A stretch of 64,000 bases of DNA, from NCBI RefSeq assembly GCF_022846255.1, contig NZ_AP025682.1. One strand, given 5' to 3'. Within the stretch, counting starts at the first letter, position 1; the number at the start of each line of letters is the position of its first letter. Source of the stretch: Escherichia coli (GTDB lineage Bacteria > Pseudomonadota > Gammaproteobacteria > Enterobacterales > Enterobacteriaceae). Position numbers and translations under genes: made by a program. This document shows positions 1 through 60,922 of the stretch, piece after piece. A model generated the notes under the pieces. The model saw nothing but the letters and a program-made list of their open reading frames with translations, was not told the origin of the DNA and did no database searches.

Positions 1-134
1 GATGGTACTGGCAACGTTGCCGGGCTAAATATCTCTGTTGCAACCGGCGTTTTGCTTGGTGAATGGTGGCGTCAGAATAAAGCCTGATAAATCAGCCGGG
101 TGGCAACGCTGCCATCCGGCGTTTTCCTGCAAAT

Positions 135-824
135 TTACTCACTTTCTGCCGGTAATACTGGCATCCAGTCAATCGGTTTCTCGCCACGTTGTTCCAGCCA
201 CTGATTTGCCAGCACAAAATGGTTGCAGCCAAAGAACCCACGATGCGCAGAAAGCGGTGATGGATGCGGCGCTTTCAGTATGTGATGGCGTTGCTTATCA
301 ATAATCGCCCCTTTCTTTTGCGCATGTGAGCCCCACAACAAAAACACCACGCCTTCGCGGTGCTGGTTAATCAGGCTGATTACTTTATCGGTGAAGGTCT
401 CCCAGCCGAGGCTGGCGTGGGAATGCGCCTGACCTGCGCGTACCGTCAACACAGTATTGAGTAGCAGAACGCCCTGACGCGCCCAGCTTTCAAGATAACC
501 ATGATTAGGGCGGGTGAAACCGGGAATAGTATTTTCCAGCTCTTTATACATATTCAGCAGTGACGGCGGTGTCGCAATGCCGGGGCGAACGGAAAATGCC
601 AGACCATGCGCCTGTCCCGGTCCGTGATAAGGATCCTGGCCGAGAATCACCACTTTAACGTCACCCAACTCTGTAAAGCGGAACGCGTTAAAGACATCTT
701 TTTGTGGCGGATAGATAGTGACGCCGGACTGCCGCTCGCTGGCGACGGTCTGTAGGGTATTAAGAAAATAGGGTTGCTGCTTCTCTTCAGCCAGCACATC
801 ATGCCAGGTTAATTCGTTAGCCAT
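135..824 (-). CDS. ung: uracil-DNA glycosylase
   Basis: 229-aa ORF starting [20 protein letters not shown], recognised as E. coli Ung; conserved K-12 neighbourhood. Confidence 0.95.
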
Positions 825-954
825 CTCGCTCTCCTGCGAATCTTCAATCCGCCTAGCTTAACTGCTTCTTTCTACAGAACAAAATCATGCTCATTTTATA
901 GACAAAAAGACATGCAAAAAAATGTAAATTGGTAAAATTTCACACCTGCATAAG

Positions 955-968
955 TTGATGTAAAACAA
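955..968. promoter_or_regulatory. distal FNR-like site TTGAT-N4-AACAA upstream of grcA
   Basis: One mismatch to the FNR consensus; centre exactly 53 bp upstream of the proximal site, matching the known two-site grcA (yfiD) promoter layout. Confidence 0.5.
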
Positions 969-1007
969 TAAAATCCATTTGTGACCACATTCGATATGTG
1001 GTATTTA

Positions 1008-1021
1008 TTGATTTAAATCAA
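1008..1021. promoter_or_regulatory. proximal FNR site TTGAT-TTAA-ATCAA upstream of grcA
   Basis: Perfect FNR consensus palindrome about 115 bp upstream of the grcA ATG. Confidence 0.65.
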
Positions 1022-1128
1022 AGAATCAAGGGTGTTTGAGGAGTATATATACACTCAAGCAACAATGGTTTTACCAATTGGCCGCGACAGGCTGAACAAA
1101 TCAAATAATTTTGCCGGGGAGGCATCAC

Positions 1129-1512
1129 ATGATTACAGGTATCCAGATTACTAAAGCCGCTAATGACGATCTGCTGAACTCTTTCTGGCTGCTGGACAGC
1201 GAAAAAGGCGAAGCGCGTTGCATCGTTGCGAAAGCAGGTTTTGCAGAAGACGAAGTGGTTGCAGTAAGCAAACTGGGTGACATTGAGTACCGTGAAGTTC
1301 CAGTAGAAGTGAAACCAGAAGTTCGCGTTGAAGGTGGTCAACACCTGAACGTAAACGTTCTGCGTCGTGAAACTCTGGAGGATGCAGTTAAGCATCCGGA
1401 AAAATATCCGCAGCTGACCATCCGTGTATCCGGTTATGCAGTTCGCTTTAACTCTCTGACTCCGGAACAGCAGCGCGACGTTATCGCTCGTACCTTTACT
1501 GAAAGCCTGTAA
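1129..1512 (+). CDS. grcA: autonomous glycyl radical cofactor GrcA (YfiD)
   Basis: 127 aa from the internal ATG ([16 protein letters not shown]...[29 protein letters not shown]); GGGAGG Shine-Dalgarno 7 nt upstream; the ORF track start at 1111 is TTG. Confidence 0.95.
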
Positions 1513-1533
1513 GGCTTAAGTAGCAAGTTACTA

Positions 1534-1564
1534 AGCGGAAGAGGGCGACCTCTTCCGCTTTTTT
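1534..1564 (+). terminator. rho-independent terminator after grcA
   Basis: Stem AGCGGAAGAGG / CCTCTTCCGCT, loop GCGA, followed by T5. Confidence 0.65.
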
Positions 1565-1566
1565 CA

Positions 1567-2154
1567 TTAATAGAAAATGCGTACCGCGCAATAGACCAGC
1601 AGCAGCGCGAGCACGATATTTAACTGGCGACCATACTGGCGAAACAATCGCTGAAACAGGTGCCCCGCCAGCGCCCAGCACACATTGCCAAACGTCCCAA
1701 TCATCGCCAGCAAAACGCTGACGCCAATTATCCAGCTTAGCGCCTGCGTTTGCGGCAGGACAAACGTCGACAGTGCTGTAATGCCATACAAAATGATTTT
1801 GACGTTCACAAACTGCAAAGCAAAGCTGGCCCAAAAACTGATTGGTTTTGTCTGAAGCCCATCTTCCTTTGTTGGACTGGTAGCGATTTTCCACGCCAGC
1901 CAGACAATATATGCCGCCCCCGCCCAACTCAACAGATGCACTGCTGCCGGGTCGATAACAGCCAGTGAAAACGAAATTCCCGCGCATAGCAACATGACGA
2001 TTAAAAATCCCAGACTCATCCCTGCCAGCACGCGAGTACTCTGACGAAATCCGTGCGTTGTAGCTGAGCTAAGGGCGAGAATATTGTTCGGTCCTGGCGT
2101 CATGGCGGTAATCAGGGTGTAAGTCCAAAAAGCACTTAAAAGGGTCGGTGTCAC
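1567..2154 (-). CDS. eamB: cysteine/O-acetylserine exporter (LysE/RhtB family)
   Basis: 195-aa hydrophobic ORF at the conserved position between grcA and yfiE. Confidence 0.9.
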   Translation of the reverse strand: MTPTLLSAFWTYTLITAMTPGPNNILALSSATTHGFRQSTRVLAGMSLGFLIVMLLCAGISFSLAVIDPAAVHLLSWAGAAYIVWLAWKIATSPTKEDGLQTKPISFWASFALQFVNVKIILYGITALSTFVLPQTQALSWIIGVSVLLAMIGTFGNVCWALAGHLFQRLFRQYGRQLNIVLALLLVYCAVRIFY

Positions 2155-2256
2155 TTGTTATCTCCTCTGTTTTGGTAGACAGTACCCGACACGGAACATT
2201 TAAAAAAATGAATGTTTTTACATTCTAAATTCGATATTTTCGATAGGTTTGGGGTT

Positions 2257-3138
2257 ATGGATCTGCGCCGTTTTATTACACTTAAAACCGTGGTGGAAGA
2301 GGGTTCCTTTTTGCGAGCTTCGCAAAAATTGTGCTGTACACAATCGACGGTGACTTTTCATATTCAGCAGCTTGAGCAGGAGTTCTCGGTACAATTGTTT
2401 GAGAAAATTGGTCGACGAATGTGCCTTACCCGCGAAGGAAAAAAGTTGCTGCCGCACATCTATGAACTTACCCGAGTGATGGATACGCTTCGTGAGGCTG
2501 CGAAAAAAGAGTCGGATCCGGACGGGGAACTACGCGTTGTTTCAGGCGAAACGTTGCTCTCTTACCGAATGCCGCAGGTGTTGCAGCGTTTTCGGCAACG
2601 CGCTCCAAAAGTGCGTTTATCGTTGCAGTCGCTGAACTGTTACGTGATCCGTGATGCGCTACTGAATGATGAGGCCGATGTCGGGGTTTTTTATCGCGTA
2701 GGGAATGATAATGCTCTGAACCGGCGAGAGTTGGGTGAACAATCGCTGGTGCTGGTGGCTTCACCGCAAATTGCAGATGTCGATTTTACTGAGCCGGGAA
2801 GACATAACGCCTGTAGTTTTATTATCAATGAACCGCAATGTGTCTTCCGCCAGATATTTGAGAGCACGCTGCGCCAGCGACGGATCACGGTGGAAAACAC
2901 CATTGAGCTTATAAGTATCGAAAGCATCAAGCGTTGTGTCGCGGCAAATATCGGGGTCAGTTACCTGCCGCGCTTTACAGTGGTAAATGAACTTGCGAGT
3001 GGCGAATTAATCGAATTGCCTTTTGGCGAACAGTCGCAGACGATTACGGCAATGTGCGCTCACCATGCCGGAAAAGCGGTTAGCCCGGCGATGCACATTT
3101 TTATTCAGTGTGTTGAAGAGTGTTTTTTGCCGGGATAA
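2257..3138 (+). CDS. yfiE: LysR-family transcriptional regulator
   Basis: 293 aa from the internal ATG (MDLRRFITLKTVVEEGSF...), N-terminal helix-turn-helix; conserved synteny. Confidence 0.85.
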   Translation: MDLRRFITLKTVVEEGSFLRASQKLCCTQSTVTFHIQQLEQEFSVQLFEKIGRRMCLTREGKKLLPHIYELTRVMDTLREAAKKESDPDGELRVVSGETLLSYRMPQVLQRFRQRAPKVRLSLQSLNCYVIRDALLNDEADVGVFYRVGNDNALNRRELGEQSLVLVASPQIADVDFTEPGRHNACSFIINEPQCVFRQIFESTLRQRRITVENTIELISIESIKRCVAANIGVSYLPRFTVVNELASGELIELPFGEQSQTITAMCAHHAGKAVSPAMHIFIQCVEECFLPG

Positions 3139-3170
3139 AAATAATGCCGGGCTTAAACCCGGCATTGAGA

Positions 3171-4505
3171 TTACTCTTCTGTCGTTTGCGGTGGCACGCC
3201 CGTTCCGCTCGGTTTACGGCGCTTACCAATATTTTTGGTGTCGCGATGGCGTTTTTTCACCCGCGGCTTATCTTTCTCTTTAGCTTTTTTCTTCTCGGCG
3301 CGTTTAGCCAGTACTTTCTTCGATGGCTTGCCGGTCTGCTTCTCGCTTGGCGCACGCGTTTTCGGGCGTAACTCATCAATTACACGAGCTTTAATTGGCT
3401 CTTCAATATAGCGACCAACTTTGCCCAGCAGCAGATGGTCATGGGCTTCTACCAGCGAAATTGCGGTGCCTTTACGACCGGCGCGCGCGGTACGTCCGAT
3501 ACGGTGCAAATAAGTATCGCCACTGCGCGGCATATCGAAGTTAAAGACGTGGCTGACGTCAGGAATGTCGATACCGCGCGCGGCAACATCGGTTGCAACC
3601 AGTACGTTTACGCGACCTTCGGTCAAACGCTTGATCGCTTCGTTACGCTTGCCCTGTACCATCTCACCTTCGAGATAGCAGTTGTTGATGCCCGCTTCGC
3701 GCAGCCAGTTTGCCAGCTCATGCACACGCTCACGCTTACGCACAAACACAATTGAGCGGGTCGCTTCCGGCTGTTTTAACAGGTGCACCAGCAATGCGGT
3801 TTTATGTTCCAGGTCATCGGCGCGGTAATACCACTGATGAATTTTTTTGCGCTCACGGGTGGACGGATTGGCAGAAACCTCCACCGGATCTTCCAGCAGA
3901 CGCTCGGCAAAGTCCTGAATCGCATCGCCTTCCAGCGTTGCCGAAAAGAGCAGGGTCTGTTTACGCCAGCGCGTTTCGCCAGCAATATGTTCGATATCCT
4001 GAGCGAAGCCCATATCCAGCATACGGTCTGCTTCGTCGAGGATCAGCGTTTCAACCGCGCGGCAATCGAAGTTCTCTTCTTTTATGTATTGCAGCAGACG
4101 TCCGGTCGTGGCGACCACAATGTCCTGGTTTTCGCTGAACACTTCTGCGTGGTTCATATAGGCCACGCCGCCGGTGATGGTGGCGATATCCAGATGCGTA
4201 TGTTTCGCCAGTTCGCGGGCATGATCGGCCACCTGCATCGCCAGCTCGCGAGTTGGGGTGAGGATCAAAATACGCGGCGGACCGGATTTCTTACGTGGGA
4301 AATCGAGCAGGTGCTGCAACGCTGGCAGCAGATACGCCGCCGTTTTACCGGTGCCTGTCGGCGCAGAACCGAGTACATCACGGCCATCGAGCGCAGGCGG
4401 AATGGCGGCAGCCTGAATGGCGGTCGGGCGAGTGAAACCTTTATCCTGGAGGGCTTCCAGCAGGCTTTCGTCGAGTTCAAGTTCGGAAAAAGTCGTTACA
4501 GTCAT
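3171..4505 (-). CDS. srmB: ATP-dependent DEAD-box RNA helicase SrmB
   Basis: 444 aa; APTGTGKT Walker A, DEAD box ([14 protein letters not shown]), basic C-terminal tail. Confidence 0.95.
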
Positions 4506-4636
4506 GTTCTACCTCTGTGTGGGGCGCTGATTATAGACGTTACGGCTGCAATCTTCATCTGTTTGTATGGATATCGCTTCTCGGGTATTGTTCTCACCCG
4601 GTGCTATCGCCGTTTTTCCTGCAAGGTTTTATTTTC

Positions 4637-7005
<2,369 letters not shown>

Positions 7006-7278
7006 TGGTTTGGTCAGCATAGCATCATGTTGTGCGAATAAACACCTGCTATTTTAATATTTGTTACAGTTGCTAAACACGCTGACGCAGGGCGGCGAGA
7101 AAAAGAGAAGTTACTGGCTGGTGGAGGATTAGGTGGTGAAATAAAAAGGCCGTTGGGTTACTCTTCAGGCAGTTAAATGGGCATTTCTACACAGATAATG
7201 CGATGTTCAGATTCTGTAGACTTATAATGATAGATAATGATCCGTCTACAGCATGACAAACAAAAACAGATGCGTTAC

Positions 7279-7306
7279 GGAACTTTACAAAAACGAGACA
7301 CTCTAA
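7279..7306 (+). promoter_or_regulatory. sigma-E-type promoter upstream of rpoE (rpoE P2-like)
   Basis: GGAACTT, 16-nt spacer, TCTAA; about 83 bp upstream of the rpoE ATG. Confidence 0.7.
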
Positions 7307-7388
7307 CCCTTTGCTTGCTCAAATTGCAGCTAATGGAGTGGCGTTTCGATAGCGCGTGGAAATTTGGTTTGGGGAGACTTTACCTCGG

Positions 7389-7964
7389 ATGAGCGAGCAG
7401 TTAACGGACCAGGTCCTGGTTGAACGGGTCCAGAAGGGAGATCAGAAAGCCTTTAACTTACTGGTAGTGCGCTATCAGCATAAAGTGGCGAGTCTGGTTT
7501 CCCGCTATGTGCCGTCGGGTGATGTTCCCGATGTGGTACAAGAAGCTTTTATTAAAGCCTATCGTGCGCTGGATTCGTTCCGGGGAGATAGCGCTTTTTA
7601 TACATGGCTGTATCGGATTGCTGTAAATACAGCGAAAAATTACCTGGTTGCTCAGGGGCGTCGTCCACCTTCCAGTGATGTGGATGCCATTGAAGCTGAA
7701 AACTTCGAAAGTGGCGGCGCGTTGAAAGAAATTTCGAACCCTGAGAACTTAATGTTGTCAGAAGAACTGAGACAGATAGTTTTCCGAACTATTGAGTCCC
7801 TCCCGGAAGATTTACGCATGGCAATAACCTTGCGGGAGCTGGATGGCCTGAGCTATGAAGAGATAGCCGCTATCATGGATTGTCCGGTAGGTACGGTGCG
7901 TTCACGTATCTTCCGAGCGAGGGAAGCTATTGATAACAAAGTTCAACCGCTTATCAGGCGTTGA
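7389..7964 (+). CDS. rpoE: RNA polymerase sigma-E factor
   Basis: 191 aa from the internal ATG (MSEQLTDQVLVERVQKGDQKAF...). Confidence 0.95.
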   Translation: MSEQLTDQVLVERVQKGDQKAFNLLVVRYQHKVASLVSRYVPSGDVPDVVQEAFIKAYRALDSFRGDSAFYTWLYRIAVNTAKNYLVAQGRRPPSSDVDAIEAENFESGGALKEISNPENLMLSEELRQIVFRTIESLPEDLRMAITLRELDGLSYEEIAAIMDCPVGTVRSRIFRAREAIDNKVQPLIRR

Positions 7965-7996
7965 CGATAGCGGGATACTGGATAAGGGTATTAGGC

Positions 7997-8647
7997 ATGC
8001 AGAAAGAACAACTTTCCGCTTTAATGGATGGCGAAACGCTGGATAGTGAGCTGCTTAACGAACTGGCTCATAACCCAGAAATGCAGAAAACCTGGGAAAA
8101 CTATCACTTAATCCGTGACTCAATGCGGGGTGATACTCCCGAGGTGCTCCATTTCGATATCTCTTCACGCGTGATGGCCGCCATTGAAGAAGAGCCAGTA
8201 CGTCAACCGGCGACATTGATCCCGGAAGCCCAGCCTGCGCCGCATCAATGGCAGAAAATGCCATTCTGGCAGAAAGTACGTCCGTGGGCGGCACAGCTTA
8301 CCCAAATGGGCGTAGCCGCATGCGTATCGCTTGCAGTTATCGTTGGTGTCCAGCACTATAATGGACAATCTGAAACGTCCCAGCAGCCCGAAACGCCGGT
8401 ATTTAATACACTGCCGATGATGGGTAAAGCCAGCCCGGTAAGCCTGGGAGTACCTTCTGAAGCGACCGCAAACAATGGTCAACAGCAGCAGGTACAGGAG
8501 CAGCGTCGTCGCATTAATGCAATGTTGCAGGATTACGAACTGCAACGCCGACTCCACTCTGAACAGCTTCAGTTTGAGCAGGCGCAAACCCAGCAAGCCG
8601 CTGTACAGGTGCCAGGAATTCAAACTTTAGGAACGCAATCGCAGTAA
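7997..8647 (+). CDS. rseA: anti-sigma-E factor RseA
   Basis: 216 aa from the internal ATG (MQKEQLSALMDGETLDSELLNELAHNPEMQKTWENYHLIRD...). Confidence 0.9.
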   Translation: MQKEQLSALMDGETLDSELLNELAHNPEMQKTWENYHLIRDSMRGDTPEVLHFDISSRVMAAIEEEPVRQPATLIPEAQPAPHQWQKMPFWQKVRPWAAQLTQMGVAACVSLAVIVGVQHYNGQSETSQQPETPVFNTLPMMGKASPVSLGVPSEATANNGQQQQVQEQRRRINAMLQDYELQRRLHSEQLQFEQAQTQQAAVQVPGIQTLGTQSQ

Positions 8648-17478: not shown

Positions 17479-17748
<270 letters not shown>

Positions 17749-17954
17749 TTACCGTTAAATCATTTTAAAAATCAGTAAGTTGTATCGAGTTTGTATGCTT
17801 TACTGTCATTAACTTACTGTATGTTGATCCAGTGTATTTAACCTTGATAAACTCAGTCCAGTAACACAAAGCCGCAACACATTGCATTTTGTCCCGTAGA
17901 AAAGACTTGTATGTGTGTGCTTGTTTTCTGCGCCTACGCAGATAAGGATTGAGA

Positions 17955-19352
17955 ATGCCGCGCACTGTAACACATAATCCGGATAGCCCCAATAATGACG
18001 ATGTTTTAGCCGCATCTGAAAAATGGGACGCCTGTAAACCCCCCTATACCAGCGCACACATGAAAATCTGTGTTGCTGCCGCCAAAATCATCCTCGCTGC
18101 TTCCGGCGTGGCTCGCCGTTCCAAATACGAAAAAGAGAACTATCTCCGTATCGATTTCAGCAAAGCCGGTAAGGTTACATTTTACGCCGAGTTTCCAAAA
18201 AAGATGGGCCTCAAAGGTAAAAAGCTCGGCGAGTGGCCGGAGCTCGCTATCCAGCTGGCGCGCGAAAAAGCGCTAGGTATGGCTGACGGTGGCCTGCGGG
18301 CAGAGTCCGTACATGCAGCGCTGGAAATGTACCGGGATGACCTCAAAGCCAAAGTCGCCCGGCAGAAGCTGAGCCCGGACAGTTTCACAACCTACGGGGT
18401 GCGTATCGACCGGATTAAAGCAACGTTCGGCGAGCGCGAGGTGTTCAGCGACGTAACATACAATCGGCTGGTGGAAGTGCTGGACGAGTGGATCGCTACT
18501 CGCTCGAACAATAACGCCCTGGAGTTGTTTGCCGAGCTCCGTCGGTTCTGGAAGTTCTGCGCACCTACTCTTTGCAACGGCCGCAATGTTGCCGCCAGTC
18601 TGCCAGATGATTATGTTTCCTCCCGCGTACAGAAACCTACCCCCACACGGCTTTTTACCGATATTGAATCAATCGCCCGACTCTGGCTCAATGTTGCTGC
18701 CTGCACCTCTGTACACCAGAAGAATGCTGTTCGCTTCATGATCATCACTGGTGTTCGTCCGATTAATGTCCATAACCTGCGCTGGGACTACGTTCACGAG
18801 GAGGCTGGTGAAATTGTTTATCCGGAAGGGGTTATCGGCATGCGAGGGGCTATGAAAACACAAAAGGCTTTCCGCCTGCCGATAACCCCTGAGATCCGGC
18901 GGATTATCGACGAGCAGAAAGCCTGGCGTGATTCAGTTCCTGAGTGCAACAGGGATTATGTATTTTTGCAGCCACGTGATCCAATGCAGCCATTTTCAAA
19001 ACGATCACTGGATAAGCTGGTGAAAACATACAGCCCGGACGGGGCTGTAAAAGGAATAAAACATGATGGGACTGTTAAAGGGAAAGACGGTGCATTTAAT
19101 ACGATGTGCCGTAAATTCCTTAAGAGCAATGTTATTGCCTTGATGAAGGAAAGAGGCTATTCCCGCTCAGACCGAAGGGAAATCAGCCTCCTTTGCCTTC
19201 ACCACTCCAGCAAGTCAGATGACCCGATGGCAGAACATTACGACTTTTCTGATGAGATTTTACAGGAAGAGATTGCGTTGAAGCGCGAAGCTTTCGAGGC
19301 TCACGAGCGGAGCATACTTGCGCAGGTGGCATTGCTACGGCGGCGAGGTTAA
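17955..19352 (+). CDS. phage integrase (divergent tyrosine-recombinase-like)
   Basis: 465 aa from the internal ATG with AAGGA Shine-Dalgarno (ORF-track start 17949 is TTG); position beside attL; candidate catalytic R/H/Y residues in the C-terminal half. Confidence 0.65.
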   Translation: MPRTVTHNPDSPNNDDVLAASEKWDACKPPYTSAHMKICVAAAKIILAASGVARRSKYEKENYLRIDFSKAGKVTFYAEFPKKMGLKGKKLGEWPELAIQLAREKALGMADGGLRAESVHAALEMYRDDLKAKVARQKLSPDSFTTYGVRIDRIKATFGEREVFSDVTYNRLVEVLDEWIATRSNNNALELFAELRRFWKFCAPTLCNGRNVAASLPDDYVSSRVQKPTPTRLFTDIESIARLWLNVAACTSVHQKNAVRFMIITGVRPINVHNLRWDYVHEEAGEIVYPEGVIGMRGAMKTQKAFRLPITPEIRRIIDEQKAWRDSVPECNRDYVFLQPRDPMQPFSKRSLDKLVKTYSPDGAVKGIKHDGTVKGKDGAFNTMCRKFLKSNVIALMKERGYSRSDRREISLLCLHHSSKSDDPMAEHYDFSDEILQEEIALKREAFEAHERSILAQVALLRRRG

Positions 19353-55791: not shown

Positions 55792-56609
55792 TGGCGAAAA
55801 ATGACTTTAAAGCGTTTGCAACGGATCGAAATGCCAATGTTATATCGCAGGAGGAATGGGAAGCGTTGCCCGCGCTTGTATCCGGATTTACAGCAGGGAA
55901 AGCCTCCAGTGCGCAAGTCAATAAGGTTATTCGGCAGGCCAGCTTTATTGCTGCAGCTCTGGCCCAGTTTGTAAGTGATAAAACGCAACGGGATGTGCTT
56001 GATAATGGTGATCTGCCCGGTTTTGTTGAATTGCTGGGATCGGGGTTTGCTGTTGAATACCTGAGCCGCAAGAATCCGTTTGGTGATATCAAATCGGATG
56101 GCACGGTGAAAACGGCTCTCGAAAACCTTGGTTTGGGAGAAGGCTCTGCATTACCTGTTGGTGTGCCTGTTCCGTGGCCCTCCGCAACCCCGCCAACGGG
56201 CTGGCTGAAATGCAACGGCGCTGCCTTTGATAAGGTGAAATATTCCCATCTTGCTACAGCATATCCATCAGGGAAACTACCTGATCTCCGTGGTGAGTTT
56301 ATTCGTGGATGGGATGACGGGCGTGGTATTGATGCAGGACGTGCTTTATTGAGCATTCAGACTGGGATGCTGGAAAAACACCGCCATATTGTTGTTGCCA
56401 ACGATGGGTATGATTCAAAAGAGGAATGGGAACTGGCGACAATCTTCAGAAGAGCATATACGCAAGGCCGGGGGCTTGATGCTGCCGATGCCGGAGGAAC
56501 TCTGATTCCATCACCAACGCTACATACACGAGGGAGTATTGGTAACACAGGTGGGAGCGAAACCCGTCCACGAAATATTGCATTTAACTATATCGTGAGA
56601 GCTGCATAA
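55773..56609 (+). CDS. tail fibre protein (constant N-terminus plus invertible variable C-terminus)
   Basis: 278 aa; crossover site lies within codons 117-124 (ENLGLGEG). Confidence 0.7.
56128..56142. repeat. left crossover site of the invertible segment (gix/hix-like)
   Basis: TTGGTTTGGGAGAAG, inverted repeat of 58069..58083; contains the AAACC-TT-GGTTT core typical of Gin/Hin sites. Confidence 0.6.
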
Positions 56610-57211
56610 TGGATAAAGCCGTATTAAATAGCGAACTTATTGCCACGAAGGCGGGGAATATTACCGTCTATAACTATGATGGTGAAACACGGGAATATAT
56701 TTCCACTTCAAATGAATATCTTGCCGTTGGTGTCGGTATCCCGGCATATTCCTGTTTAGATGCTCCTGGCACATATAAGGCTGGTTATGCAATCTGCCGT
56801 TCAGTAGATTTAAACTCATGGGAATATATGCCAGACCATCGCGGTGAAATTATCTATAGCACCGAAACAGGAGAAGCAAAAGAAATCACAGCTCCGGGTG
56901 ATTACCCTGAAAATACAACCACTATCGTCCCGTTAACGCCATATGATAAATGGGATGGTGAGAAATGGGTGACAGATTCTGAGGCACAACACGGTGCCGC
57001 AGTAGAAGCGGCAGAAGCACAGCGCCAGTCACTGATTGATGCAGCAATGGCTTCCATCGGTCTGATTCAGCTGAAATTACAGGCCGGACGGAAGCTGATG
57101 CAGGCAGAAACAACCCGGCTTAACGCTGTGCTGGATTACATTGACGCGGTGACGGCAACAAATACCAGCACAGCGCCGGATGTCATCTGGCCTGAACTGC
57201 CGGAGGCGTAG
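56609..57211 (+). CDS. tail fibre assembly protein (U-like)
   Basis: 200 aa; C-terminal TSTAPDVIWPELPEA-type motif. Confidence 0.65.
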   Translation: MDKAVLNSELIATKAGNITVYNYDGETREYISTSNEYLAVGVGIPAYSCLDAPGTYKAGYAICRSVDLNSWEYMPDHRGEIIYSTETGEAKEITAPGDYPENTTTIVPLTPYDKWDGEKWVTDSEAQHGAAVEAAEAQRQSLIDAAMASIGLIQLKLQAGRKLMQAETTRLNAVLDYIDAVTATNTSTAPDVIWPELPEA

Positions 57212-57626
57212 GCCATTCAATATCTGGCGCACAGGAAGTATCGACCAGTTCCAGTGCGTCCAGATAATCCAGCCATAAATTATATTGCTCCAGCTCGTTA
57301 CCTTTCAGACGACCAATAGCAGCTTTGCCAGGCCACTGATGGGTATTGATGTAAGTATTGGCTTCTGAAACCAAAGATATTTTTTTCATTTCAGCCATCA
57401 ACACCTCATCCTCTTTTGAAGGCGGTGGGGAATTAATCCATATTGGCCGTCCTGAACTGTCAGCGCCAATTTCTTTCCCTTCTGGATGCAGCCCAAGAAA
57501 TTGCTCATATGTTTCTCGGGTAATTTCAATAACATCATCTGGAAGCGTTCCCGCATCCTCATATTCTGGAAACAATTCTTGTAGATAAAAACTTTTACTT
57601 CCGGGTGAAAAGAATACTGAGTTCAT
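57183..57626 (-). CDS. alternative tail fibre assembly protein (U'-like)
   Basis: 147 aa on the opposite strand; C-terminus TSCAPDIEWPTPPAVQAR paralogous to the plus-strand gene. Confidence 0.6.
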   Translation of the reverse strand: MNSVFFSPGSKSFYLQELFPEYEDAGTLPDDVIEITRETYEQFLGLHPEGKEIGADSSGRPIWINSPPPSKEDEVLMAEMKKISLVSEANTYINTHQWPGKAAIGRLKGNELEQYNLWLDYLDALELVDTSCAPDIEWPTPPAVQAR

Positions 57627-57628
57627 TA

Positions 57629-58123
57629 TTACCGTCCAATGATTAACGCTGAGACGCTGGTATCTGAAGGAAAGGCTGCATTCAGTGGTTTGTCGACTTT
57701 GAACACAATCGTATTATTCCCCCTGACAGCGGCAAAAGAACAAACCGCAGTCGCGTATGAACCTGTAATATTACTGGATACACCACCATAAGCTGTTGTT
57801 GATACCAGAGGGATAACGCCCAGCACCTTATTAGGAAATACAAAGGGCAATGTGGCTGTGGCAATATAAGACTTATTAGAGCCTGTGATGGCATAAGCAT
57901 TATCAGTCATTCCATTCATCGCCACCGGGCCGCTTATACTTACAGTAACCATCTGAATGATTAGCCCGTCAGGTTGACGAATCACAAAATTTCCATTGCC
58001 ACCAGTAACCGTCCAGAAAGACATATCAGGGATTTGGTTTTCCCCGTTGCCCACATTCCGTTTTGCCGCTTCTCCCAAACCAACGTTTATGAAAATGCAG
58101 AAATAACGAGCAAATGGCATCAT
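57629..58123 (-). CDS. alternative tail fibre variable C-terminal segment (Sv'-like)
   Basis: Minus-strand ORF whose 5' end (..INVGLGEAAK) spans the right crossover site; expressed only after inversion fuses it to the constant fibre N-terminus. Confidence 0.55.
   Translation of the reverse strand: MMPFARYFCIFINVGLGEAAKRNVGNGENQIPDMSFWTVTGGNGNFVIRQPDGLIIQMVTVSISGPVAMNGMTDNAYAITGSNKSYIATATLPFVFPNKVLGVIPLVSTTAYGGVSSNITGSYATAVCSFAAVRGNNTIVFKVDKPLNAAFPSDTSVSALIIGR
58069..58083. repeat. right crossover site of the invertible segment
   Basis: CTTCTCCCAAACCAA, reverse complement of 56128..56142; about 67 bp upstream of the invertase start. Confidence 0.6.
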
Positions 58124-58149
58124 TCCTGCTTTTGTCAGGGAGATCTACC

Positions 58150-58704
58150 ATGCTTATTGGCTATGTACGCGTATCAACAAATGACCAGAATACCGATCTA
58201 CAACGTAATGCGTTGAACTGTGCAGGATGCGAGCTGATTTTTGAAGACAAGATAAGCGGTACAAAGTCCGAAAGGCCGGGACTGAAAAAACTGCTCAGGA
58301 CATTATCGGCAGGTGACACTCTGGTTGTCTGGAAGCTGGATCGGCTGGGGCGTAGTATGCGGCATCTGGTCATTCTGGTTGAGGAGTTGCGCGAACGTGG
58401 CGTTAATTTTCGCAGCCTGACGGATGCTATTGATACCAGCACACCGATGGGGCGTTTTTTCTTTCATGTGATGGGGGCCCTGGCTGAAATGGAACGAGAA
58501 CTGATTGTTGAACGAACAAAAGCTGGACTGGAAGCTGCTCGCGCACAGGGACGAATTGGTGGACGTCGTCCCAAACTTACACCAGAACAATGGGCGCAGG
58601 CCGGGCGACTAATTGCATCAGGAGTTCCTCGCCAGAAGGTGGCGATCATTTATGATGTTGGCGTATCGACTTTGTATAAGAAGTTTCCGGTCGGAGATAA
58701 ATGA
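58150..58704 (+). CDS. serine DNA invertase (Gin/Pin/Hin family)
   Basis: 184 aa from MLIGYVRVSTNDQNTDLQRNAL...; closely resembles Mu Gin as recalled; the ORF-track start at 58114 is an upstream in-frame ATG. Confidence 0.85.
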   Translation: MLIGYVRVSTNDQNTDLQRNALNCAGCELIFEDKISGTKSERPGLKKLLRTLSAGDTLVVWKLDRLGRSMRHLVILVEELRERGVNFRSLTDAIDTSTPMGRFFFHVMGALAEMERELIVERTKAGLEAARAQGRIGGRRPKLTPEQWAQAGRLIASGVPRQKVAIIYDVGVSTLYKKFPVGDK

Positions 58705-58784
58705 AACCGTAGCACGTCGTATGCAAGAACGTGCCACGGCTGGCTGATAAGCTTGTAAAAATATTGAACAGGGAGTGGAGCATT

Positions 58785-59432
58785 CTATGAAGCTAATTTG
58801 TTTAATTTCATTTGTAGTGACTTTACTTCTTGGTCGATAATGTCGAATCCCTTATTGACAGCATCTCTTAGCTCTGCATCAATATTTTTTATCCCTTGAG
58901 CATAATCTACCATTACATTTATTTTTGCATCATGTAATCTCTTATACATGGTTTTATCTTTGTTATTGTCTGCCATGCCAATAAGGATTTTTTCATAATC
59001 CTCAATGAGTTTGTTGTTTCCTTTAAATGATTGTATTAATGAGCGTGAATATGTGTATATGTTAATTATTGAGTCTCTAGCAGAATCATTTAGTTTTGCA
59101 ATGACATTCGCATTTTGCTCATAGAATGTGAAATTATCATCCCCTACAGGGAATGTGAGAATCAACATTTGTCCCGGTTTTATATTATCAATGTGTGTTT
59201 TCATCCTTTTATTATATAAATTGATTAGGGTGAAAACTTCTCCCTTAACTCCTTTTAATACTGAAAGTTGTAATTCAAGGGATTCTCTTTCTGTCTCTAC
59301 TTTAGACAGCTTAGCTTGTTGGGTAACTCCTTTTAGGGTAAACCATCCGCCAATAAGAGTACCAACTAGAGCTGTGAGGGAGGAGGATAACCATCCAGGT
59401 ATGCTATTTAAAAGATTACTAAATTCACTCAT
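58785..59432 (-). CDS. membrane-anchored coiled-coil protein (cargo, unknown function)
   Basis: 215 aa; N-terminal membrane helix (SSLTALVGTLIGGWFTL), coiled-coil, C-terminal domain; very AT-rich. Confidence 0.45.
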   Translation of the reverse strand: MSEFSNLLNSIPGWLSSSLTALVGTLIGGWFTLKGVTQQAKLSKVETERESLELQLSVLKGVKGEVFTLINLYNKRMKTHIDNIKPGQMLILTFPVGDDNFTFYEQNANVIAKLNDSARDSIINIYTYSRSLIQSFKGNNKLIEDYEKILIGMADNNKDKTMYKRLHDAKINVMVDYAQGIKNIDAELRDAVNKGFDIIDQEVKSLQMKLNKLAS

Positions 59433-59490
59433 TATAAGTACTCGCTAATATTGAACGATATATATATCAAATTATTATAAAACTCGTCAG

Positions 59491-59769
59491 CTACTGGAGC
59501 AGGCTACCTGAACTTCGATCTATTCCTGCATCCATATAGTTGATGGTCTTCTGGAGCTCTTCGATTAGGGCAACAGCTTTTGCTCGAGAAATGCATATTA
59601 GTTGATCCGGAAATTCTTGTAAGGGCCAGTTTGGTATACAGGCCATGTTATCAGTGAAGGATGCAGACAAGTAAACTTCATTGGTAACCAGAGAATAGCT
59701 TACCTCAAAATTGGTGAGTTCCGGCAAACTGCTAACGTTTGACTCTTTTCTGCGCATAATATTATCCAT
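59491..59769 (-). CDS. small hypothetical protein (cargo, upstream partner of the membrane protein)
   Basis: 92 aa from the internal ATG (MDNIMRRKES...); the ORF track extends to 59919 through the G10/C10 tract; AT-rich. Confidence 0.4.
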   Translation of the reverse strand: MDNIMRRKESNVSSLPELTNFEVSYSLVTNEVYLSASFTDNMACIPNWPLQEFPDQLICISRAKAVALIEELQKTINYMDAGIDRSSGSLLQ

Positions 59770-59851
59770 GACTGTAATTATGTACAGGTGATGGTCTTCA
59801 ATTTCGAAGAGGGAGTCAAGGGGGAGTCTCAAATGAACCGTTATAGAAAAA

Positions 59852-59861
59852 GGGGGGGGGG
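59852..59861. repeat. G10 homopolymeric tract
   Basis: Ten consecutive G upstream of, or within an N-terminal extension of, the 59491..59769 gene. Confidence 0.5.
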
Positions 59862-59970
59862 ATCTTTGTGTTGCTGAACTTATGCAAAATTTTTTTGCAC
59901 CATAAATCCAACAACACATTCAATAACACATTGCTGTATCACTATGAAAATAAATGTGTTTTTATTTGAT

Positions 59971-59988
59971 TTCACACATATCACAATT
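59971..59988. repeat. attR core, 18-bp direct repeat TTCACACATATCACAATT
   Basis: Identical to 17692..17709. Confidence 0.7.
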
Positions 59989-60018
59989 GATGCATTTTTT
60001 AGTGATTAACAGCGCCAT
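59971..60018 (-). pseudogene. yfhL: displaced original 5' fragment of yfhL (16 codons)
   Basis: Minus strand reads ATG GCG CTG TTA ATC ACT AAA AAA TGC ATC AAT TGT GAT ATG TGT GAA ([16 protein letters not shown]); 19 of 30 bp identical to the phage-borne yfhL 5' end outside the core. Confidence 0.6.
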
Positions 60019-60073
60019 AAGGAAACTCTCAAAACAACACAAACCGGGCGGGCATTATACGCGCATTCTTTAC

Positions 60074-60922
60074 TCAGACCAGTTTTTTCACCAGCGCTTC
60101 GCTATGACGAATACGTTCTGGTGCCAGTTCCAGATCCTGCTGAATCAGCGCAATGAACAGCAAATCCGTTAACATTCCCTGCGCGTGACAAGCAGAGATT
60201 GAAGCACTGTTTGTCGCTTGTTCTTCGGCAATGGTATACAGGCAATGAGAAGCACGCTGTTGCAGGGCATTGGGAGTAAAGCCGGTAATAGCCAGCACTT
60301 TTCCGCCCACTCGCAGCATCTCATCTGCCGCCAGGTTTAACTCGCGTCGTACACCGGTGTAGGAAATGGCTAATAACAGATCGTCAGGGGACGACGCCTG
60401 TACTGTAGCGAGTAGCGCATGCATATCGCGCACTGCGGCAGCATTGAAGCCAATCTTCATCAGCTTCCAGGCAAAGTTTTGCGCCACCAGACCCGAAGCG
60501 CCAATACCGGTCAGAATTATCCGCCGCGCAGAGCGCAACATTGCCACGCATTCATGCAGTTTCTCTTCACTATTAACGTTTAACGTTGCGTACATAGCGG
60601 CAGTATTTTCTTTAATCAGTTTTTCGCCGACCAGCCGTAACGGATCATCACCGCGGATTTGGTTATGAATGGGCACGGAGGGAGATTCCGGCTGGCTTGC
60701 CAGCGCTTCACTCAACGCCAACTTTAGTGCCGGAAAACCTTTATAGCCGAGTTTTTGCGCGAACTTCACGACGCTGGATTGACTGACTCCGGCTTCGTTG
60801 GCCAGTTGCTGAGAGCTTAAATGGCGCGCCGTATCAGGTTGTAGCAGCAGATAATCCGCCAGTTTTTTATCACTCTGGGCAAGCCCCTGGTAACGCTGAC
60901 GGATACGAAGTAAGCCGTTCAT
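60074..60922 (-). CDS. yfhH: RpiR-family transcriptional regulator (HTH plus SIS domain)
   Basis: 282 aa from the internal ATG (MNGLLRIRQRYQGLAQSDKKLADYLL...). Confidence 0.8.
   Translation of the reverse strand: MNGLLRIRQRYQGLAQSDKKLADYLLLQPDTARHLSSQQLANEAGVSQSSVVKFAQKLGYKGFPALKLALSEALASQPESPSVPIHNQIRGDDPLRLVGEKLIKENTAAMYATLNVNSEEKLHECVAMLRSARRIILTGIGASGLVAQNFAWKLMKIGFNAAAVRDMHALLATVQASSPDDLLLAISYTGVRRELNLAADEMLRVGGKVLAITGFTPNALQQRASHCLYTIAEEQATNSASISACHAQGMLTDLLFIALIQQDLELAPERIRHSEALVKKLV

Follow-up and report, generated by a model that had tools for sequence, protein, structure and literature searches.

Phase variation by simple repeats in promoters is well known from porA, opc and fetA of Neisseria, the poly-C tracts of fim2/fim3 of Bordetella and the TA repeats of hif in Haemophilus, where the repeat sits between or over the -35 and -10 elements, or else separates the -10 from an activator site. 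Repeats upstream of the -35 can modulate promoters as well, as the TAAA repeats of Neisseria nadA do. Contingency loci typically scatter in length from isolate to isolate. In the prophage CUS-3 of E. coli K1, heptanucleotide repeats within the coding sequence of neuO reportedly switch translation. Here we analyse a run of ten G residues in a 64,000-nt stretch of E. coli DNA (the window), which an earlier note, made from the sequence alone, had singled out as a possible phase-variation switch of a prophage cargo operon. Like the tracts of porA, opc, fetA and fim3, it is a poly-G/C run upstream of a gene and its length is polymorphic among isolates; unlike them, it lies 32 nt upstream of a conserved -35 and has no known activator. 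With CUS-3 neuO it shares the association of a simple-sequence repeat with accessory genes of a prophage, but it lies outside the conserved coding sequence. Compared with simple-sequence-repeat (SSR) contingency loci, the tract is hypermutable, in that closely related genomes differ in its length, and it lies outside both the coding sequence and the core promoter. It also resembles neutral mononucleotide repeats in non-coding bacterial DNA, which vary from strain to strain in 1-nt steps and more in pure than in interrupted runs, and differs from them in being unusually long for E. coli and in lying in horizontally acquired AT-rich prophage DNA.

Two further systems bear on the surroundings of the tract. 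Among LexA-controlled prophage modules (PMC3121763) are the dinI-antirepressor operons of Gifsy phages and, in phage 186, Tum. The gene beside the tract is comparable in that a small acidic product of 88 aa stands behind a conserved LexA box and promoter, and in the relative LH50-c a DinI-like gene with two LexA boxes occupies the same position; unlike these modules, the 88-aa protein showed no sequence or fold similarity to DinI or to any solved structure. A role as obligatory antirepressor is weakened by the S24 peptidase (self-cleavage) domain of the prophage CI repressor, because of which an antirepressor is not required. The second system is the lambda-type attP, with which the locus shares a 38-bp core at both attL and attR, arm-type motifs (putative sites) on both sides and an adjacent integrase gene.

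The tract comprises exactly ten G on the plus strand (C10 on the minus strand) in the context AGAAAAAGGGGGGGGGGATCTTTG, and lies 110 bp from the prophage's right end, on its inner side. A scan of all 64 kb finds no other G or C run of 7 nt or longer, the next longest G runs being six of 6 nt. Runs of at least ten G are expected 0.07 times per window under an iid model and 0.04 times under a first-order Markov model, and our extrapolation from the decay of run lengths (126, 26 and 6 runs of G4, G5 and G6) gives about 0.02 such runs per window. A chance occurrence in the window is unlikely; for a genome of 5 Mb, one or a few such runs would not be extraordinary. Simple repeats in coding regions are reportedly avoided by E. 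coli (PMC3315296), and given this avoidance the run is conspicuous and mechanistically not new. A literature search returned no description of the tract. The distances noted before are accurate: counted upstream from the ATG at 59769, the tract begins at 83 nt, and in a 142-aa ORF at 59491-59919 it falls in codons S20-P21-P22-P23.

BLAST of the empty yfhH-yfhL locus of K-12 against the window aligns K-12 positions 1-3711 with 63681-59971 and 3674-8001 with 17729-13402. Since the two K-12 matches overlap, attL and attR each hold a copy of a 38-bp core. The two copies enclose a myovirus prophage of about 42 kb, integrated in the 5' end of yfhL and encoding a tyrosine integrase, an AlpA/excisionase-like ORF, its own DNA polymerase, a primase-helicase, an exonuclease and CI. 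The integration point is in the first codons of yfhL: the attR stub retains 18 codons, and at attL the phage supplies a new 5' end (MSLLITKRC... vs K-12 MALLITKKC...), leaving yfhL (17479-17739) intact at 86 aa. For the near-identical ECONIH2 locus PGAP additionally lists genes of the baseplate and, with pinE, an invertible segment for the tail fibres. In the window this segment, a neighbour of the tract, spans 56609-58704 and carries alternative tail-fibre C-termini and assembly genes on opposite strands together with pinE, a genuine DNA-inversion switch; the pinE-type invertase is frameshifted in H10407 and DEC5E. An Rfam scan gives only a sub-threshold partial match to the CssrB sRNA at 58682-58738 (plus strand), at the 3' end of pinE (31.7 bits vs a gathering threshold of 76, E = 5e-4), which is probably not significant. 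The coordinates of all features are collected in Table 1.

Table 1. Features of the prophage ends and of the region around the G10 tract (window coordinates).
Feature	Position	Strand	Remarks
Tyrosine integrase gene	17949..19352	+	adjoins attL; putative P-arm sites at 17862-17871 and 17875-17884; LexA-box candidate at 17815-17834
pinE-type DNA invertase	58150..58704	+	belongs to the adjacent invertible tail-fibre segment; from PGAP of ECONIH2 and ORF list
215-aa cargo gene	58785..59432	-	no family match; other relatives hold different cargo there
(AT)5 repeat	59458..59467		between two minus-strand genes; (AT)5, (AT)6 or (AT)7 among strains
88-aa gene	59491..59757	-	acidic protein (pI 4.6), phrog_17793 (function unknown); conserved last phage gene beside att
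LexA (SOS) box	59770..59789		core CTGTAATTATGTACAG at 59772-59787; CTGT-N8-ACAG
Putative weak -10, GACCAT	59791..59796	-	placed by position vs the conserved -35; missed by generic scan
-35 hexamer TTGACT, promoter of 88-aa gene	59814..59819	-	conserved; 32 nt from tract
A5 run abutting G run	59847..59851	+	varies from A3 to A6; combined purine run 8-15 nt
G10 homopolymer	59852..59861	+	in related prophages, G5 to G10 plus interrupted forms
Outermost putative integrase arm-type site	59864..59873	-	CAACACAAAG; 2 nt from tract
Imperfect palindrome of P' arm	59867..59918		centre TGCAAAATTTTTTTGCA (59883-59899); T run varies (T6, T7, T8, T5C)
Two further putative arm-type sites	59912..59933	+	CAACACATTC, TAACACATTG; matches to YAACACAWWS
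Truncated host yfhL'	59962..60018	-	attR remnant of 18 residues; directed into the prophage, towards the tract
attR core	59971..60008		38-bp direct repeat of attL core (17692-17729); BLAST vs K-12

The motif YAACACAWWS occurs six times in the 64 kb, compared with about 2.2 expected, and five of the six occurrences lie close to the two att cores, at most about 160 bp away: on the integrase side at 17862 and 17875, and on the right at 59864 (minus strand), 59912 and 59924. This clustering suggests that the motifs are arm-type sites of the integrase. The G run stops 2 nt short of the outermost putative site; thus the tract lies just outside attP and is not part of it. The palindrome of the P' arm was also considered as an intrinsic terminator and rejected, being AU-rich and lacking a U run directly after the hairpin, and the terminator scan found none there.

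On the other side of the tract lies the promoter of the 88-aa gene. In all upstream regions compared (the window and the SEN34, Salmonella, Citrobacter and Escherichia sp. loci) an invariant TTGACT precedes a weak -10-like hexamer with a 17-nt spacer, and a CTG-N10-CAG box stands at -29/-30 from the ATG (window box ACCTGTACATAATTACAGTC; homologues for example TACTGTATAAAACACCAGTA and AACTGTATAAAAACACAGTA). The stricter pattern CTGT-N8-ACAG has just two matches in the window, one of which is this box. By a position weight matrix derived from E. coli SOS boxes, whose absolute scores are approximate, the window box scores 16.3 and ranks second in 64 kb, and the homologue boxes score 19.8-23.6 and rank best or second in their own loci. 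The box thus adjoins or overlaps the promoter and is conserved in orthologues at the sequence level, which suggests that the 88-aa gene is under LexA control; the same promoter probably also drives the 215-aa cargo gene. The two best LexA-box candidates in the 64 kb flank attP, the other one (TACTGTATGTTGATCCAGTG, 17815-17834, score 18.2) lying in the P arm, with about 115 nt between it and the integrase gene downstream. This arrangement suggests that both genes bordering attP may be SOS-controlled. The conserved -35 is itself formed at the junction (TTGACT, minus strand) of a tandem 11-nt repeat, AAGAGGGAGTC / AAGGGGGAGTC, at 59807-59828, and the G run in its second copy is G4 or G5 depending on the strain.

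Relative to this promoter, whose transcription start is predicted near 59784, the tract is located at about -68 to -77, and relatives from other genera have no G or C run at the equivalent place. According to the earlier note, a change in tract length would alter promoter spacing. The -35, the -10 and the LexA box all lie downstream of the tract, and since the promoter is wholly beyond the 32-nt gap its -35/-10 spacing is unaffected by tract length. A core promoter spanning the tract was also considered; a generic scan gave none, and on our own reading there are no acceptable hexamers.

A shift of the reading frame had been proposed as the other consequence. The PHROGs profile phrog_17793 starts at Met 59757, with profile positions 1-88 of 91 covered. 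The search for homologues of the 88-aa protein returned 61. Those in Salmonella, Citrobacter and Escherichia sp. have 87-88 residues, and E. coli entries reach 113-145 aa through an upstream extension that is read in different frames, and so with different sequence, in different alleles (MCCWIYGAKKFCISSATQRSPPPF..., MLLNVLLDLWCKKILHKFSNTKIPPPF..., ...SPPFYNGSFETPLD...). Two of the three frames are open in different alleles and give extensions to 140-145 aa. Because the extension shifts frame between alleles, the upstream region with the tract is non-coding. In the tract-bearing allele series PGAP annotates the 267-nt ORF alone, and this in some genomes only. The 88-aa ORF is uninterrupted at all tract lengths examined, and with the family beginning at 59757 and the extension frames inconsistent, the proposed frame-shift switch does not hold. 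Gene callers produce spurious N-terminally extended versions of 113-160 aa, among them PGAP in strain A16 (480-nt CDS), because the tract region is without stop codons in two frames. Small plus-strand ORFs with a G-rich RBS (GTG/TTG near 59869; ATG 59833, giving MNRYRKRGGGSLCC and a stop) were likewise rejected, as indels in the T run and the G run shift their frames between alleles and they are absent from other cargo variants.

Searches with the 88-aa protein gave no match in Pfam, NCBIfam or PADLOC, and the best hit of a profile search against the PDB reached only E ~1.5. Its AlphaFold model is of low confidence (pLDDT 62.7) and Foldseek matches to it are meaningless. An excisionase function is unnecessary, given a 66-aa AlpA/excisionase-like ORF beside the integrase gene and the acidic nature of the 88-aa protein. 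The 88-aa gene is always the final phage gene before att in SEN34 and in prophages that occupy other integration sites, and on its far side these relatives carry an acyltransferase, nothing or an IS element. Some relatives carry IS elements in or beside the 88-aa gene region (Z226-5, Escherichia sp.; IS1A-family, rve-type transposases), and in strain CAU16175 the segment 59780-59837 matches within an annotated 'phage tail protein'.

The description of the two right-end genes as a cargo operon is accurate for the 215-aa gene, which is variable cargo and whose product has no match in PHROGs, PADLOC, NCBIfam or Pfam; the 88-aa gene is instead a conserved end gene of the phage family. Some relatives share sequence with the window only from the tract rightwards and carry other cargo to the left, namely DUF2335 genes (CREC-544, DEC5E), tail-fibre genes (SMBL) or the DinI-like gene and two LexA boxes of LH50-c. 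Since the left cargo differs among relatives, the purine-rich motif marks the left limit of a conserved attP-proximal block.

To compare tract lengths, the 161-nt segment 59780-59940 was searched in 5,426 complete E. coli genomes, of which 153 matched, 123 of them over 80% or more of its length; the tract itself was read in about 25 loci, and most entries of the allele census are inferred from match length. Direct reading gives at least 12 combinations of A and G run lengths in related E. coli prophages and viral contigs. These are A5G10 (window, ECONIH2, TUM1880), A6G9 (an IMG/VR contig), A5G9 (23CRST009), A5G8 (H10407, O103:H2 12009), A4G8 (JNEC-KY208), A5G7 (O55:H7 CB9615), A4G7 (ETEC-2264 and an IMG/VR contig), A5G6 (O55:H7 DEC5B), A3G8 (JNE23-001), A3G7 (16F5M1D1, Z226-5, DEC5E), A3G6 (A37, EH2252) and A3G5 (21KM1392). 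Also read directly were the interrupted forms A3-GGGGGAGG (that is, A3G5AGG; F11, A16, 2014C-3061, SMBL) and GGGGAGC (G4AGC; WP3-W18, vB_EcoM-611R5), and GTGGTGT in CREC-544. The combined A/G length takes every value from 8 to 15 nt in 1-nt steps and without periodic constraint. Thus the slipped-strand hotspot postulated in the earlier note is borne out, and the invariance among related phages that was to count against it is not observed.

The O55:H7 strains CB9615 (G7) and DEC5B (G6) are nearly identical over the flanking 570 bp, each with at most 3 substitutions relative to the window, and differ at the G run and at (AT)n. As such near-identical strains differ in length, the tract locus mutates far faster than by base substitution. 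The remaining indels in the 570-bp segment all fall at simple repeats, (AT)5-7, G4/G5 at 59820 and T6-8 near 59890, and this confinement is the pattern expected of unselected slippage. A plus-strand promoter-like match, TTGAAC-16-TATTAT (59451-59478), which would be directed antisense to the 88-aa gene, has the (AT)5 repeat in its 16-nt spacer; this match may be a chance occurrence in AT-rich DNA.

Long pure tracts are rare. G9 or longer is found in 3 of about 123 carrier genomes; among the best 60 matching genomes, match length indicates two with G10, one with G9 and 23 in the A5G8 length class, the interrupted F11 type accounts for about 20 more, and the divergent G4AGC type is also widespread. 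There is no enrichment of long pure tracts and no sign of selection for them. Within clones the length is shared: the 11 genomes of the O103:H2/O45:H2 group have identical match lengths, all apparently G8, and UTAK-2/-4/-6 and the resequencings of H10407 each show one match length. The isolate-to-isolate scatter of contingency loci is not seen at the tract. Clonal sharing argues, as a proxy, against very high switching rates, although it is read from assembly consensus, which hides sub-population heterogeneity and is compatible with a moderate rate.

Taken together, we consider it probable that G10 is a neutral, slippage-prone homopolymer in a non-coding spacer, which switches nothing on or off. 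The tract lies between the outermost putative arm site of attP (P' arm) and the upstream edge of the LexA-box promoter. It may have arisen from a purine-rich boundary sequence, AAAGAAAGGGGGAGG. A single A-to-G change in GGGGGAGG (G5AGG) would yield G8; replication slippage and G/A changes at the A/G border could then have generated the alleles from G5 to G10. Such length changes would be tolerated and would drift, as their position is outside the arm sites, the core promoter and the coding sequence.

An alternative is that the C10 of the minus strand, present in read-through RNA from the host genes (yfhH, yfhL'), serves as a rut-like insulator that recruits Rho and halts transcription before the LexA-box gene, a longer C run loading Rho more strongly. 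Among RNA cofactors of Rho, poly(C) is the strongest known, and the minus-strand 78-nt windows within 59782-59879 contain 37% C and 11.5% G, a C/G ratio of 3.2 that exceeds the 99th percentile (2.25) of all 78-nt windows in the 64 kb. The C-rich stretch is unpaired in the predicted RNA fold, the stop of the yfhL' ORF at 59962 leaves untranslated RNA upstream of it, an intrinsic terminator was not found in 58650-60150, and the pyrimidine-rich boundary motif is retained in most cargo variants. However, the basis of this reading is composition; the C-richness predates the expansion, so that G10 itself adds little, and CREC-544 carries GTGGTGT at the tract position. Insulation by Rho is therefore unlikely to explain the tract.

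Tract length could also set the distance and helical phase that separate RNA polymerase at the LexA-box promoter from proteins bound to the P' arm (integrase at CAACACAAAG and possibly IHF), so that lineages would differ heritably in how strongly the 88-aa gene and the 215-aa cargo are expressed, basally or after SOS induction. The position of the tract relative to the promoter and 2 nt from the putative integrase site, the eight length values in 1-nt steps and a weak -10, which could make the promoter sensitive to upstream contacts, are consistent with such a rheostat. By analogy with the nadA repeats, integrase bound this close to the tract could matter to the promoter. Against this, neither integrase nor another factor is known to activate the promoter, homologous promoters in Salmonella, Citrobacter and SEN34 do without a tract, and the commonest alleles are interrupted and therefore stable, clones holding a single allele. 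We regard tuning by helical phase as quite improbable.

A homopolymer artefact of sequencing or assembly, in which the true length is shorter and the variation technical, has a very small chance of being correct. Homopolymer length errors are common in long-read assemblies, and many of the compared genomes are of this type. However, G10 is identical in the window and in the independent complete genomes ECONIH2 and TUM1880, the window counting as a third independent source because its nearby (AT)n differs from both; the older finished references H10407, O103:H2 12009 and O55:H7 CB9615 carry G8, G8 and G7, and alleles are consistent inside clonal groups. G10 is thus probably not an assembly artefact.

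Translational phase variation, in which the long ORF from 59919 or a GTG-started frame would be translated and the tract would toggle an N-terminal extension, has an almost negligible probability: the ORF 59491-59919 is open with A5G10 and other alleles open extensions in two of the three frames, but the extension is missing from the PHROG profile and from all orthologues of other genera, switches amino-acid sequence with the frame between alleles, is preceded by no Shine-Dalgarno motif before 59919 on our reading, overlaps the putative arm sites, the -35 hexamer and the LexA box, is never called by PGAP in the tract-bearing allele series, and in Salmonella would be closed, four codons before the ATG, by an in-frame stop.

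If the tract is a neutral spacer repeat, as we think probable, it is usable as a fast-evolving typing marker for the yfhL prophage, and it warns of spurious ORFs of 140-145 aa from gene callers. Of greater use than the tract itself is the anatomy around it, in which attP with its putative arm sites is defined and the 'cargo operon' opens with a conserved LexA-box gene found in phages of Escherichia, Salmonella and Citrobacter. That the tract acts as a heritable tuner of this LexA-box module, via P'-arm/promoter phase or Rho loading, is very unlikely; if its length did tune the promoter, E. coli would have in this prophage an unusual case of contingency regulation by a repeat.
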